The notes beneath the pieces are model-generated. The model saw only the letters and a program-made list of their open reading frames with translations, was not told the origin of the DNA and ran no database searches. A stretch of DNA of 64,000 nt from an uncultured delta proteobacterium (GTDB lineage Bacteria > Desulfobacterota > Binatia > UBA9968). Each line of letters opens with the position of its first letter. Position 1 is the stretch's first letter. The position numbers and the translations under genes are program-made. Shown here one piece after another: positions 9,617-53,789 of this stretch. Location: contig CAVTUQ010000004.1 of the NCBI GenBank assembly GCA_963737905.1, forward strand, positions 64,001 to 128,000. Reading direction: 5' to 3'.

Positions 9617-10453
9617 ATGGCAACAACGTGCCCGGTCGACTTCGATGTAGATAGATTGCGCCGGCTCGTGCGTGTGGAGTACGATCGGCTGGCGCGGGAA
9701 CCCAGGGGAAACTTTCATTTTCATCGAGGACTGGAGTATGCTTGCCGCATACTCCGCTATGACCCTGAGGAGTTGGCAACAATCCCATCCGAATGCACCG
9801 CGTCCTTTGCCGGTGTCGGCAATCCGCACCGCATCGGTCCCATCGAACCGGGTGAAACAGTCCTTGATATCGGGTGCGGCGCCGGCATGGATCTTTTGCT
9901 GGTCGCGCGCCGCGCCGGCCCTTCGGGAAAAGCGATTGGAGTGGATATGACCCCCTCCATGCTCGAGCTGGCCAAGCGCGGCGCACTAAAGGCCGGCTTA
10001 TGGGAGAACACTGAGGTTCGCCGCGGCACGGCCGAAGAGCTGCCGGTGGCGAGCGAGAGTGTCGATGTTGTTATCTCTAACGGCGTCCTCAATCTCTCAC
10101 CGGACAAAGATCGCGCCTTTCGCGAGATATACAGAGTGCTGCGTCCGGGAGGACGCTTGTATCTCGCCGATGTAGTGATTCAAAGAGAGCTTTCACTCGC
10201 AACGCGAAGCGATGTCGATCTTTGGGCAGCGTGAATTGGCGGCGCTCTGCCGGAGGTGGAGCTTTATGAAATCACCGCTGGCGTTGGTTTGACGGATGGG
10301 AAGATCGTCGAGCGCTTCGATTGTTATGAAGGTACCTCTGCTAAAGCAAAGTTATCCAAAGACCTTCTCATTCACGGCGTGAATTTTCTCGCCCGCAAAC
10401 CGTCGCGCTCAAGAGGGGCCAACGATCAGCAAACGTCGGACAGGCTAGGATAG
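9617..10453 (+). CDS. ArsM-like SAM-dependent methyltransferase, predicted selenoprotein (Sec at TGA 10232-10234)
   Basis: VLDIGCGAG motif I and SNGVLNLSPDK. LWAA-TGA-IGGALP aligns with the ArsM W-x-x-C-I-x-G-A-L Cys. ORF 10256-10453 is in the same frame. Hairpin at 10244-10262. Confidence 0.85.
10244..10262 (+). promoter_or_regulatory. Putative bacterial SECIS element
   Basis: GCTCTGCC-GGA-GGTGGAGC: 8-bp stem with two G-U pairs; loop starts 17 nt after UGA. Confidence 0.7.
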
Positions 10454-45389: not shown

Positions 45390-45824
45390 TTACCCCACGA
45401 GCGGATTGACGACGGTGAGTGTCGGAAAGCGGCTGAAGTCGCGATCGGAAGTCCACAACTCGCGGACGCCATGATCGCGGCAGACCGCGGCGATGCGAGC
45501 ATCATGGACTTGAGGACCACTGATGCGGCCGTGCTCAAGGAGGGAGCGAAGCTCCGGCCAGTAGCCTTCGGTCTCTGCCAACAGGACCAAACTCGGCGAC
45601 TCAAACCAGGCTTCGATTTGATCGATGGCGGCGGCGATCGGGGTGGGCGGCGAATAAATACGCGGGTGAGTTACGATGGCAAGAAATTCATGTATACAGG
45701 GCCACGGGATCGCCCAAGGAGACTTCGCTTCAGCGAGTTCCGTGATCTTGGTCAGGGCCGCATCATGCCACGGCGAGTCCTCGCGATGAGCGTAGACGAG
45801 CAAATTGGTATCGACGGCGATCAT
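45390..45824 (-). CDS. vapC: VapC (PIN) toxin
   Basis: IAVDTNLLVYA, HEFLAIVT, HDARIAA, SDRDF. Confidence 0.93.
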   Translation of the reverse strand: MIAVDTNLLVYAHREDSPWHDAALTKITELAEAKSPWAIPWPCIHEFLAIVTHPRIYSPPTPIAAAIDQIEAWFESPSLVLLAETEGYWPELRSLLEHGRISGPQVHDARIAAVCRDHGVRELWTSDRDFSRFPTLTVVNPLVG

Positions 45825-46066
45825 CCGCCCCTTCCCTGGTAAATCGCTTCACGAATTCGTTCCCACGTTGCATCTTGCACCCCGGGCTGAAGCCCCTTGC
45901 CCTTGAACGCCGCCTTCCGGAGCCGAAACACACCGCGACTTTTTCGTTCCGCGACGATTCGCCTGAGACCCTGCTCGACGTATGCCCGAACCGTCGTCCC
46001 TTCCTTTGCGGCGAGTCTCTTGGCCTCGTCCAAAAGTGAATCTGATATCTCTATGGTTGTCTTCAT
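45821..46066 (-). CDS. VapB-type antitoxin
   Basis: MKTTIEISDSLLDEAKRLA; ATGA overlap with vapC. Confidence 0.88.
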   Translation of the reverse strand: MKTTIEISDSLLDEAKRLAAKEGTTVRAYVEQGLRRIVAERKSRGVFRLRKAAFKGKGLQPGVQDATWERIREAIYQGRGG

Positions 46067-46360
46067 ATGGGTATATGTATCATTGTATATGGCTGTACAT
46101 CAAGTCGGCAGGCGCGTAGGAGCGGCACAGGTCAGGCCGACGCGGTTGACCGAGAGTTGCGACTCCGTATAAGTTACACGTTAGCGGCGGATCAGATCGA
46201 GAGGTGCTGGTGAGAAATCAGTGGACACGAACGGGGCGAATAATTGCGTTCCTCGTTCGGGGTAACGCTGAGATTCTAAGGGCGATTGGCGACCGTTTGT
46301 CGAGCTGATTGAGAGGGCTCGTAAGTGGGGATGCTCTTGACAACGAAGATCGGAGGCAAT

Positions 46361-46915
46361 ATGGGCAGCGAACAAAGAGGACCTGAAGTCGGAGAGCGTG
46401 CTCCGGAGTTTTTCGTCAAGGTGGGGAGCGACAGATTGGCATTGAGCCAACTCGCAGCCCGTCATGACAAGCTGGTTCTCACGAGCCAAGACAGCTATCG
46501 GTATCACCCCAACTGAGCCGCCAGTGTCGCTGCTTCGTTGAAGCAGGACTACGCGAAGATCGTTCGGGCCGGCGCTGAGTTGGTCATGATCTCGCCGGAT
46601 TCTCGGGAACAACACCACCAATACGCGTTTACACTTTTCGGCGAGGAGCTGCCTTACCTTTTCGTTTCAGATGGAGATTTCGAAATCGCGCGGTGCTACG
46701 GTCTGATCCGCCAAGAGGAACATCCCCACGGCGGCTTCTATGATCGCTCGCTCTGGATCTTGGATCCCGACGGCGTAATCACCCATAAGAGTCTTCCCTG
46801 GACAGGGAACGCCAGCATCAAAGAGTATCAAAAGTTGTTCAGCCTGATCGGCAGCGATCCGGGAGAATGGCGGGCCACCTGCGGCGTTCGGTTTGAAAGG
46901 GGCCACACTGAGTGA
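46361..46915 (+). CDS. Divergent peroxiredoxin/AhpC-TSA fold protein, predicted selenoprotein (Sec at TGA 46514-46516)
   Basis: GGAGG RBS; VGERAPEF...YHPN-TGA-AASVAASLKQDY...VMISPD...FVSD...RSLWILDPDG. ORF 46538-46915 is in frame. Hairpin at 46526-46549. Confidence 0.8.
46526..46549 (+). promoter_or_regulatory. Putative bacterial SECIS element
   Basis: GTC-g-CTGCTTC-GTT-GAAGCAG-GAC: perfect 7-bp upper stem; loop starts 20 nt after UGA. Confidence 0.72.
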
Positions 46916-47080: not shown

Positions 47081-48325
47081 TTATTGCCGTGCGACGATGC
47101 GGCTCGGCGTTACCAAAATAATCCGGTTCGTACTCGTTTGATGGATCAGCAGGTTCCCGTCCCGCGTCGGCCTCATGTGCCTCAAGATGCCGCCGTAAAT
47201 TCCTCCAGAGGGGATGGCCCAGCTCTGGAATCGCTCCGTTTTAGGATCGAAACGGACGAGCGCATCCGGCCTCTGCCCGGACTCATTGTACCAAACGATA
47301 CCGTCCACGACCGCGATGGCGTAGGGATGGGATTTTGGCCCGCTGGGAGAAGGCCATTCCTTGATATCGCCCGTTTTCGGATCCAACCGGCCCAGACGCC
47401 CCATACCGGAATTGACATACCAGATCATACCGTCCTTCGCGATATCAAGGCGCCGCACCGTTGTCTTGGCATCGGGCAAGGGGTATTCCCGGATTGCCAT
47501 CGTGTCGGGATCAACTTTCAGCAGACAGTTGCCGCCGTTGCAGGCGACCCACAGGCTGCCGTCGGAGCTCACCTTGATCCCGTATGGCCGCGAATTTGGC
47601 CTCGCCACCTTTACCAGCTTGATATCGCCTGTCGCCGGGATCAAGCGGCCCACCATGTTGCTTACCTGCAAGGTGAACCACAGCGTCCCCTTCTTGTCGA
47701 AGACCGCAGTGTGTGGATCGCGGGCGGCGGGGTCGGGCATTTTGTACTCGGTGATCCTCCCGGTGCGCGGATCGAGTTTGCCGATCGTCCCGTTGCTGTT
47801 CCCCGTGTACCAGATGTTCCCTTCCTGGTCGGGAGTCACGGTGTGGGGCTTGGCGTTTTCCGGCAAGGAGTATTCCCAGACTTCGCCCGTTTCGGGATTG
47901 AGCCGTCCGACGAGGTTACCCCACATCCCAGCCCACCAGATTGACCCATCCGGCGCCTCGACGGGATCGCGGGCCCGTTGCCCGAGCGTCGGAACTTTCC
48001 ATTCCCGAAATGTTATCGATGTCTCGCCGGGCACCAGATTGGGCTTTAGTTGGGTTCCCGCGGGAAAATGCGTCGCCAGATATTTGGTTATCGTCTCGCC
48101 GGCCGCGTTGCCGGACAAATTCACCATCGACTGGATCAATTCCTGCCAGCCTTCACGGCTGTATCCGGAACTTCTCGTAATCAGGTTGGTCTCGTGACAT
48201 GCAGTGCAGAGGTTTTGGACTAGCTGCTTACCCTCGCCATCGGGCAATTGTTGACCCTGCGCCGTGATGGGGCCGATCATAAACAAAAACGCTCCCGCCA
48301 ATAATACGGTTAATGCTCTGTTCAT
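47081..48325 (-). CDS. Cytochrome c - Vgb-lyase-like beta-propeller protein
   Basis: Signal peptide, CTACH heme motif, seven repeats of P..dG.iW......igrldP.tG. Confidence 0.85.
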   Translation of the reverse strand: MNRALTVLLAGAFLFMIGPITAQGQQLPDGEGKQLVQNLCTACHETNLITRSSGYSREGWQELIQSMVNLSGNAAGETITKYLATHFPAGTQLKPNLVPGETSITFREWKVPTLGQRARDPVEAPDGSIWWAGMWGNLVGRLNPETGEVWEYSLPENAKPHTVTPDQEGNIWYTGNSNGTIGKLDPRTGRITEYKMPDPAARDPHTAVFDKKGTLWFTLQVSNMVGRLIPATGDIKLVKVARPNSRPYGIKVSSDGSLWVACNGGNCLLKVDPDTMAIREYPLPDAKTTVRRLDIAKDGMIWYVNSGMGRLGRLDPKTGDIKEWPSPSGPKSHPYAIAVVDGIVWYNESGQRPDALVRFDPKTERFQSWAIPSGGIYGGILRHMRPTRDGNLLIHQTSTNRIILVTPSRIVARQ

Positions 48326-48515
48326 GGCTTCCTCCACAGCTAAATTAAAGATACTTCACTCTACACCTGTACGGTCTGAGTATACAAAGGATACCAATGG
48401 GGTGACCGAAGCTCCGGCCAGTGTCTTCGGTATCTGCTCGGCGAGTTAAACCGGCGAGCGAACCGGACCAAGAGGCTCTTAACTTCCAAACGCATCGTTG
48501 TGAAAGGAGTCGCAA

Positions 48516-52118: not shown

Positions 52119-53789
52119 TTAGTCATGTTTGCCCAACGCCGACTTCTTAAACTCCGTCCTCATCTCCGATTGCAGTCGCCCCAAACGGTACTTTCGCCAA
52201 TCGATAAACCTGCCGACCTCCGCCAGCGCCGGATGGACTTCCTGGATCTTGCGCCACATCTCTTGGGCGATGAAACGATAATCCGGATGGCCTTGCGGCA
52301 TCGTGCGCAGCTCGCACAGGTGGACGGCTTCCCGCAGATTCATCTTCATATACCAGCGGATTTTGTAAGCAAACGGAACCACATACTGCGCTTCGCCAGG
52401 CAGGTCACAGTAAATTTCCTCGTAAAGTTTCGCCGACGCGTTCATGCATGCATCGAATTCGCGCTTGAAACCCGCTTCTTCGATTTCCCGCGGAGTGTCG
52501 TAGCCGTGCACTGTTGTGAAGGCTTGCCGCTCTTGGGTCAGGATCCGGTGGCGATGGAGGTCGCGATAGAGTCCGAGGTTGCCCAGAACGTCGAACGTAT
52601 AATACACGTTCTCAAAGGCCCGGCCCGGTTTATCGCGCCGATGCCGCCGCTGGCCGAAGTGTTCCTGCAAGATTTTTCGCCGTTCATTCGCATCCATGCG
52701 CAACGCCATCTCACGGAGCTGCTGGAGCGGCTGCCGCGCATGCGGATAAAGAAGACCGGCAATAACTTTTTCCTCCGCGTGCCGATCGTAGTCCACCAGC
52801 ACGACAGGCTCACTTAAATTTACCGAAACATCATTCAGTGTTTCACGGGCCAGGCTCCGCGCCGTTGCCAATATTCCGCTGAGGTAATCGTTCACCTGCG
52901 ACCGTTTCACGAATGACGGGATAAGTTGGTTCAGCTCACCGCGCAGCGCGCTACCGAGCTCCTTCGCTTCGGTCAGTTCATGCGAGTAAAACTTGCTGAT
53001 CAGATACTCGAACGCCTGGCCGACGCCGAACATGCCCACATTCGTCAGAGTCGCGGCAGGCAGATAACTGCGCAGCACGTCGCACGCATGGGCCCGCACG
53101 GTGGCGCGATAAGCGGTCTCAGCCCAACGGTGCAGGCGGTCGTTTTTCTTAGCGTCAGCGTACGGCAGTGCTTTGCCGGTGGTCGGGTCGCGTACCTCCA
53201 GCTGCTCGATGGGTAGCGCCTTGGCGATCGACGCTAACATCGGCTCCATCTGGCGCGAGTAAGTGTCAAAGAGCAGATTCATCACTTCGACGTAGGAGTC
53301 CCGGTGGCGCGAAGCCATGATCTTGGGCTCCTGGTAAAAAGGATAGTTGCCCGCCGCGTCCTTCTGATCGAAGCGGACGTAGCGCGTGGATTTTTCCAAA
53401 GGTGCGATGCCAATGCGCGCGTCTTCTAAAATTTTCGCTGCGACGTTGGAAATATTCTCGCAGGCGATATGCGCCCCGCCCAATTGTGCCACCGAATCAT
53501 CGCCATAGCCCACCAGCACACGGTCATAGAAGGCGCGGGCTTTTTTTAAGGCGGCGCTATCGTCGCCGGCCGAAGTCTGCCCTCCGAGTAGATCCTTCAG
53601 CCCCAGCTCGGGGTCGCCGAGAAATTCGTCGAAGAAGGTGCGCCGCAGACTCTTAGTCGAGCGGCTATAGCGGGAAAACAAAGCGCCGGCGACTTCCTGG
53701 GGTAATTTCAGGCCGAAAACGGATCGGTCGAGATTGGTAAAAAACGGGGCGAGCGCCATTTGCTCGTCGGCGGTGAACTCCTGACTCAT
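52119..53789 (-). CDS. thyX: FAD-dependent thymidylate synthase, two-domain type
   Basis: ALFSRYSRS, YGDDSVAQL, LEKSTRY, RDLHRHR, ELRT.PQGH..YR. Confidence 0.88.
   Translation of the reverse strand: MSQEFTADEQMALAPFFTNLDRSVFGLKLPQEVAGALFSRYSRSTKSLRRTFFDEFLGDPELGLKDLLGGQTSAGDDSAALKKARAFYDRVLVGYGDDSVAQLGGAHIACENISNVAAKILEDARIGIAPLEKSTRYVRFDQKDAAGNYPFYQEPKIMASRHRDSYVEVMNLLFDTYSRQMEPMLASIAKALPIEQLEVRDPTTGKALPYADAKKNDRLHRWAETAYRATVRAHACDVLRSYLPAATLTNVGMFGVGQAFEYLISKFYSHELTEAKELGSALRGELNQLIPSFVKRSQVNDYLSGILATARSLARETLNDVSVNLSEPVVLVDYDRHAEEKVIAGLLYPHARQPLQQLREMALRMDANERRKILQEHFGQRRHRRDKPGRAFENVYYTFDVLGNLGLYRDLHRHRILTQERQAFTTVHGYDTPREIEEAGFKREFDACMNASAKLYEEIYCDLPGEAQYVVPFAYKIRWYMKMNLREAVHLCELRTMPQGHPDYRFIAQEMWRKIQEVHPALAEVGRFIDWRKYRLGRLQSEMRTEFKKSALGKHD

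Follow-up and report, generated by a model that had tools for sequence, protein, structure and literature searches.

Introduction

The catalytic unit of peroxiredoxins (Prx), a Pro-x-x-x-Thr-x-x-Cys loop together with an arginine, is treated as universal. For members carrying selenocysteine (Sec, U) instead of cysteine the motif is listed as PxxxTxxU (PMC13188914), and the Global Ocean Sampling (GOS) study counted 253 Sec forms of Prx and 7,348 homologues with Cys (PMC2398784). In PrxU of Eubacterium acidaminophilum (NF040737), which has an AhpC/TSA fold, Sec occupies the peroxidatic position within the first turn of helix 2; the Arg is conserved, and a selenocysteine insertion sequence (SECIS) hairpin lies directly after the UGA codon. 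These features recur, as judged from sequence and structure prediction, in the protein described here. Its gene is located on the plus strand (46361..46915) of a 64,000-nt stretch of contig CAVTUQ010000004.1 from the genome assembly of an uncultured delta proteobacterium; this whole stretch is called the window below, and coordinates are positions within it. We are highly confident that the gene encodes a bacterial selenoprotein. The protein scored 28.4 bits against the PrxU model NF040737, far below the cut-off of 270, and compared with the PxxxTxxU motif as listed it has His for Thr, Ser or Thr for Pro, and three additional residues.

Results

A conserved in-frame TGA codon

The gene starts with ATG (46361-46363) and ends with TGA (46913-46915). 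Between these codons it contains a single in-frame TGA (46514..46516, +), and it comprises 184 residues if this codon is read as U52. A sequence-only reading, made by a model from the letters of the window, had proposed the gene with exactly these boundaries. A Shine-Dalgarno-like GGAGG can be read directly from the sequence at 46352..46356 (+), 4 nt upstream of the ATG; a scan for promoters and terminators found signals no more numerous than in shuffled controls.

We compared 91 family-level DNA loci, 11 of them genomic and 80 metagenomic, the latter being the best 80 of 123 confirmed loci. The genomic loci were collected with an alignment as query, as a single-protein query confirmed none of 90 pattern matches. 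The codon at the Sec site is TGA in 90 of the 91 loci and GGA in one (L054), while TGC and TGT are absent. The start codon of most related loci is found 51 codons upstream of the Sec codon, and the reading frame is kept on both sides of the TGA with conservation of the flanks at the protein level. A codon shared by 90 of 91 loci within a frame conserved on both flanks is not a product of chance. A terminal TGA ends this gene and the genes of most relatives, and TGA is therefore still a stop codon in these organisms.

The sequence-only reading had suggested asking whether homologues always carry TGA or Cys at this position, and had named Trp or Arg as residues that would point to a nonsense mutation or sequencing error. 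Neither Trp nor Arg was encountered; besides the single Gly of L054, the position is occupied by Cys in the only full-length database homologue, P0123, and in generic BCP proteins. Two loci from metagenome-assembled genomes (MAGs) with long-read-style assemblies, L033 and L034, are frameshifted 3' of the Sec codon, and the gene is likewise split in genomes G083 and G070, which probably reflects indels in the assemblies. Three soil RNA libraries, from two studies, yielded contigs that cross both the codon and the hairpin described below, with an identical TGA. As such libraries can contain DNA, they provide weak evidence of transcription.

Relatives in protein databases

When 5.8 billion proteins were searched with the joined sequence, 357 matched; the best 120 are all C-terminal fragments, spanning no more than 64-70% of the query at its C-terminal end. 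Representatives at 50% identity, searched exhaustively, gave a further list of 104 matches. In about 20 of these, short proteins, the match stops at query residue 49-53, in at least 12 it starts at query residue 57-61, and a single family-level protein is full-length, namely P0123 with 216 amino acids and 49% identity. Six of eight N-terminal fragments that we fetched stop exactly before the Sec codon, within the sequence ...DSY[RQ][YF]H[PS]N. Gene callers cut members of the family at the Sec codon.

P0123 reads ...DSYRFHRS-C..., with Cys at the position of Sec. When used as query it retrieved itself alone, and the ESM Atlas returned merely generic 'redoxin domain' clusters for it. P0123 is the one close Cys-form homologue found, and the family is thus almost obligately Sec-containing. 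A distant Prx-like gene was noticed in a Clostridia MAG (L035:3001-3408); it reads ...FGPVATTE..., with Gly and Ala at the usual positions of the catalytic Thr and Cys, and may encode a redox-inactive relative of peroxiredoxins.

A SECIS-type hairpin with frozen codons

The strong hairpin that the sequence-only reading had placed after the TGA was borne out by folding. It extends from 46526 to 46549 (+) and consists of an upper stem of 7 bp (46530-46536 with 46540-46546), a GUU loop (46537-46539), a bulged G (G46529) and, under this bulge, three GUC/GAC pairs between 46526-46528 and 46547-46549. The hairpin begins 13 bases past the TGA, and its loop begins 20 nt downstream of the UGA. Its minimum free energy (MFE) of -11.7 kcal/mol (z = -3.5) was not reached by any of 200 shuffled sequences. 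A wider stretch of 76 nt was unexceptional (z = -1.1), so that the signal is the local hairpin. The rules for bacterial SECIS (bSECIS) elements in the legend to Fig. 2 of a 2026 review ask for a loop of 3-9 nt with a G within its first two positions, a stem of 4-16 bp, a spacing of 16-37 nt and an MFE of at most -7.5 kcal/mol. With a loop of 3 nt starting with G, a 7-bp stem, a spacing of 20 nt and -11.7 kcal/mol, the hairpin satisfies all four constraints as worded in that legend. A search of Rfam around the gene gave nothing relevant, although whether Rfam models coding-region SECIS hairpins of this kind was not checked.

Codons +5 to +10 after the Sec codon, which form the hairpin, encode Ala, Ala, Ser, Leu, Lys and Gln. 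Synonymous codon use was counted over 79 unique sequences, considering at each position those with the majority residue. The majority codon was used in 78/79, 79/79, 79/79, 79/79, 77/77 and 72/72 sequences, respectively. For comparison, at other conserved Ala, Ser and Leu codons of the gene the commonest codon accounts for between 32/78 and 71/79 sequences. The most divergent members, L107, L111 and L113, lie outside the pattern used for this count and have the same hairpin, unchanged. Such freezing of synonymous sites suggests that selection acts on the RNA hairpin itself.

Peroxiredoxin fold and active-site residues

The protein matches the Pfam family AhpC-TSA (PF00578) with 47.1 bits (cut-off 26, E = 2.7e-12) and also Redoxin. 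An AlphaFold2 model built from 46 aligned sequences has a mean predicted local distance difference test (pLDDT) score of 90.4 and a predicted template modelling (pTM) score of 0.87. The top Foldseek matches of this model are all peroxiredoxins (E ~1e-11, TM 0.67-0.71). Helix 2 spans residues 50-69 of the model, which places U52 in its first turn; the model thereby agrees with the position expected by the sequence-only reading within a predicted peroxiredoxin fold. In HMMER alignments to 5enu and 5ovq, U52 stands opposite the peroxidatic Cys. The Prx landmarks that had been named from the letters, VGERAPEF, VMISPD, SD and the Arg of RSLWILD, are every one present, as are the further Cys residues in ARCYG and ATCG. 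The loop SQDSYRYHPN-U, said to replace the canonical motif, is indeed non-canonical and is conserved across the family.

Residue conservation was counted over 82 unique sequences, and for the C-terminal Cys over the 77 unique sequences with a complete C-terminus; an initial MAFFT alignment (A1) misplaced N-terminal fragments and was not used. The protein lacks a PxxxTxxC motif, as Pro is replaced by Ser or Thr and Thr by an invariant His. This His49 (codon CAC, 46505..46507, +), three residues before Sec and opposite the Thr of Prx, occurs in 82/82 sequences. The canonical Pro is opposite Ser42 in the alignment to 5enu and opposite Asp44 in that to 5ovq; Asp44 is likewise found in 82/82. According to the HMMER alignments the loop contains an insertion of 1-3 residues, the inserted three being Tyr-Arg/Gln-Tyr/Phe. 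On the other side of Sec, Ser55 completes a U-A-A-S motif in 81/82 sequences and is Gly in one.

Opposite the active-site Arg of 5enu lies Arg129 (46745..46747, +), which is Arg in 79/82 sequences. It is preceded by a loop with a family-specific H-x-H motif, His121-x-His123 (46721..46729, +), in which each His is present in 80/82; the two exceptions are frameshifted loci. The Cys of ARCYG is not conserved. Cys174 (codon TGC, 46880..46882, +) forms part of a C-terminal G-x-W-x-x-x-C motif and is Cys in 72/77 sequences, and an equivalent Cys is present in P0123, P0127 and P0130. Over the positions counted, two frameshifted loci account for most of the deviating residues. Judged by this pattern of conservation, Cys174 is a likely candidate for the resolving residue. 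As it is retained in 72/77 sequences, the family probably represents a two-residue (Sec plus Cys) redox protein rather than a lone-Sec protein.

Machinery for selenocysteine incorporation

The host genome (G000) encodes selA (606.9 bits), selB (409.8 bits) and selD (381.4 bits) in a cluster on the minus strand of contig C29 (71024-75669). SelD is itself a selenoprotein with an in-frame TGA in its G-U-A-A-K site. In ten of ten other host genomes tested, selA scored above the curated cut-off, compared with one of 14 control genomes. The window contains a second candidate selenoprotein gene, an ArsM-like methyltransferase open reading frame (ORF) at 9617-10453 (+) with an in-frame TGA (...DLWAA-TGA-IGGAL...).

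Genomic neighbourhood and distribution

The gene stands alone in the window. Directly upstream and divergent from it are genes for a VapB antitoxin (45821-46066, -) and the PIN-domain toxin VapC that pairs with it (45390-45824, -). On its other side a convergent gene (47081-48337, -) encodes a beta-propeller protein of 418 residues belonging to the virginiamycin B (Vgb) lyase family. Unusually, this Vgb-lyase-like protein combines a signal-like segment at its N-terminus with the haem-binding motif C-x-x-C-H. Elsewhere in the window, an ORF of 556 residues (52119-53789, -) contains two stretches of ThyX (Thy1) domain and is about twice the usual length. Among related loci, recurring neighbours are a PNPOx-like ORF (six loci), an ornithine cyclodeaminase-like ORF (four loci) and an upstream ORF of about 200 residues (eight loci), none of which occurs in the window.

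Searches for the selenoprotein gene gave no match among 60 order-level relatives at E <= 1e-10, nor among 300 further genomes sampled from the phylum at E <= 1e-15. In 37 of 40 order-level relatives selA is present; G006 and G012, both flagged as unpublished, are counted in the set of 60 as well as in that of 40 relatives. In the group of genomes related to G061, 11 of 61 have a match, ten of them with TGA. The host genomes G061-G070, which carry loci L024-L034, were all returned as relatives of G061 except G069 (L032). The deposited names of these hosts are delta proteobacterium, Chloroflexota, Syntrophobacter sp. and Binatia, with G069 being one of two Binatia; as all but G069 group as relatives of G061, these names are probably inconsistent. 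The patchy distribution would fit horizontal acquisition, or possibly mis-binning of contig C4, on which the window lies, since the estimated contamination of the MAG is 6.7%. Sequencing runs with near-identical DNA are mostly labelled as soil metagenomes, and the family is widespread in soil.

Discussion

The explanation that best accounts for these results is a selenoprotein working by a peroxidase mechanism, and we regard it as reasonably probable as a whole. Sequence and comparison indicate that the ribosome reads the UGA at 46514-46516 as Sec, with the 7-bp GUU-loop hairpin acting as the SECIS element for SelB. Sec52 takes the position of the peroxidatic Cys in a Prx fold that retains the Arg, and its selenolate would attack peroxide or a similar oxidised substrate to give a selenenic acid. 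Cys174 could resolve this intermediate to a selenenylsulfide, whose reduction by a thioredoxin-type reductant would recycle the enzyme. His49, in place of Thr, would probably serve as hydrogen-bond donor or proton shuttle. Taken separately from Sec incorporation, the claim that the protein is a thiol-dependent peroxidase is one to which we give slightly better than even chances.

Several observations weigh against this explanation. Of the four residues by which the Prx active site is defined, two are missing, Pro and Thr, and for this reason peroxidase activity is something that we infer. The C-terminal Cys is missing in 5/77 sequences, one of them a frameshifted locus, and residues 171-180, which include Cys174, have a mean pLDDT of only 68. 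At the Sec site, L054 has GGA (Gly, position 1290-1292) in a gene that is otherwise intact and has an unchanged hairpin; the copy may be inactivated, or the change may stem from a sequencing error. The hairpin of L030 has lost two basal pairs, and as the hairpin is otherwise invariant it offers no compensatory covariation. The stop-to-stop ORFs next to 29 sequences, i.e. the window and 28 loci, revealed no conserved partner gene, for redox or otherwise, and no neighbour shared by most loci. A tRNA-Sec was found neither in the 46 contigs of the assembly, which is 87% complete, nor beside the sel cluster. The best match to RF01852, at 46.6 bits, falls short of the gathering score of 47 and is called as tRNA-Leu by ARAGORN, which at default settings reported 45 tRNAs and none for Sec. 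Lowering its thresholds produced one 'tRNA-SeC' at the 90 setting and dozens at 80; these were treated as noise and no claim is made on them.

The missing tRNA-Sec is also what could be expected if the TGA were an ordinary stop, in a pseudogene, through a sequencing error, or between two small genes, one for a peptide of 51 residues and the other for a Prx fragment of 125 residues. Database gene callers annotate the sequences in this way throughout, and a TTG at 46538 could start the 125-residue ORF. Nevertheless, 90 of 91 loci, drawn from many samples, share this in-frame TGA and are conserved on both sides of it. Neither piece would make up a complete Prx fold by itself, whereas the joined protein is modelled with a pLDDT of 90.4. 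There is a full-length Cys form, P0123, synonymous sites in the hairpin codons are frozen, and selA was present in all ten other hosts tested, which leaves a stop codon very improbable. Decoding of the TGA as a standard amino acid such as Trp or Gly, by an altered code or by readthrough, could draw on the GGA of L054. It is at odds with the use of TGA to terminate this gene and most of its relatives, with Cys as the aligned residue in homologues, and with the presence of both a SECIS-type hairpin and all protein components of the Sec machinery, and we consider it more improbable still. Pseudogene, split-gene and alternative-code readings are thus effectively excluded.

A selenoprotein of the same fold could also carry out chemistry other than that of a peroxidase in a pocket rebuilt by His49, the Tyr-Arg-Tyr insertion and His121-x-His123. 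It might act as a thiol/selenol-disulfide oxidoreductase for a specific protein, as a reductase of another oxidised small molecule, or through a Sec-plus-His metal site, for which the copper-binding Sco proteins with their Prx-like fold offer an analogy. Replacement of both Pro and Thr, a loop longer by three residues, and the nearly invariant, family-specific His49, His121 and His123 are in line with such a change of function, as are the resemblance of U-x-x-S (Ser55 in 81/82) to the C-x-x-S redox motifs of thioredoxin-fold proteins and the almost obligate Sec, which is unusual among ordinary peroxiredoxins. The protein has, however, kept the Arg and the Prx architecture with Sec exactly at the peroxidatic position. 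There is no SCO1-SenC or thioredoxin-family Pfam match at E <= 1, save a weak Thioredoxin_8 match in 4/46 rows of alignment A3, and no neighbouring gene for metal handling. We therefore regard a different chemistry as possible, though unlikely. A more far-reaching variant, in which the family is an almost obligately Sec-containing offshoot whose His, aromatic insertion and H-x-H pocket serve a chemistry other than ordinary peroxide reduction and beyond the reach of Cys enzymes, perhaps with a Sec-plus-His metal site or on a new substrate, appears somewhat more doubtful; if true, it would explain why only one Cys form was found among billions of proteins.

If the preferred explanation of a peroxidase selenoprotein is correct, the active enzyme would show to what extent residues that stabilise the transition state become less necessary with Sec; if the protein is not a peroxidase, it would represent a new activity on an old scaffold. 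The family keeps the fold, the Arg and a reactive chalcogen yet drops Pro and Thr, and it does so solely in the company of selenium. Databases hold it as 'peroxiredoxin' fragments of 122-139 residues (the best 120 of 357 clusters). Methods that look for Cys/Sec pairs find hardly any partner for it. A model of the family would therefore put right many annotations in metagenomes from soil and sediment.

Comparison with known peroxiredoxins and selenoprotein families

The best matches in sequence and fold are BCP/PrxQ and Prx6-type enzymes (5enu, 5ovq, 3a5w/2cv4; phmmer E values of 2.7e-8 to 5e-6), the closest solved structure being the BCP-type 5enu (E = 2.7e-8), followed by Prx6-type enzymes. 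The window protein shares with them a VG-x-x-AP-x-F start, an S-x-D/H motif, the SD strand and the Arg. Identity amounts to 21-25%, and these enzymes have Cys instead of Sec and the canonical Pro and Thr; they are without the E-E-H-x-H-G-G-F loop and the G-E-W-R-A-T-C tail of the window family. Cys forms, abundant for Prx in the counts of the GOS study (PMC2398784), are almost absent from the window family.

The Prx-type selenoprotein families tabulated in two reviews (PMC9312934, PMC13188914) comprise 'Prx' (PF00578, TxxU), 'Prx-like thiol:disulfide oxidoreductase' (PF00578, UxxC or UxxU), 'UGC-containing Prx-like / TlpA protein' (PF00578 / cd02966, UGC), 'Redoxin family protein' (PF08534, UxxC), Prx-SUH (NF045827, CxxU) and 'AhpC/TSA family protein' (UxxS; pfam13911 in PMC9312934, cd02970 in PMC13188914). 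The same motifs are listed in the GOS table (PMC2398784). Compared with these entries, the Prx-like oxidoreductases have Cys or Sec at position +3, where the window family has Ser in 81/82 sequences and Gly in one, and the UGC motif of the UGC-containing Prx-like/TlpA proteins is lacking in the window protein. Against the Prx-SUH model NF045827 it scored 14.1 bits (cut-off 298), and the residue at -3 is His rather than Cys. The NCBIfam collection holds no model near its cut-off for this protein. As listed, the UxxS 'AhpC/TSA family protein' resembles the window family in having one Sec in a UxxS motif, comparable to U-A-A-S. That family is defined by PF13911/cd02970, and none of nine members of the window family (the window protein and eight others) matches PF13911 at E <= 1; the same nine match PF00578 instead. 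Alignment A3, taken as a whole, yields ten PF13911 matches, near the number of its 11 generic BCP rows.

The literature searched does not contain the strings YHPNU, DSYRYHPN or YRYHPN, and HPNU and HxxU occurred only inside unrelated words among the matches listed. No such family is described in the main text of the Olavius paper, and peroxiredoxins are not mentioned in the deep-Sep paper. In large surveys the family could have been lumped under 'Prx'. The sequence-only reading had suspected a new selenoprotein family. This suggestion holds in so far as the protein fits none of the Prx-type families tabulated in the two reviews or modelled in NCBIfam; its novelty is likely, and unproven. On balance we consider an uncatalogued subfamily the more probable reading, on a comparison that covered the families as the reviews describe them and the NCBIfam models. 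As the sources describe them, the Prx-like oxidoreductases, the UGC-containing Prx-like/TlpA proteins and Prx-SUH have in common with the window protein that all are selenoproteins of the thioredoxin/Prx fold recognised by comparative genomics.

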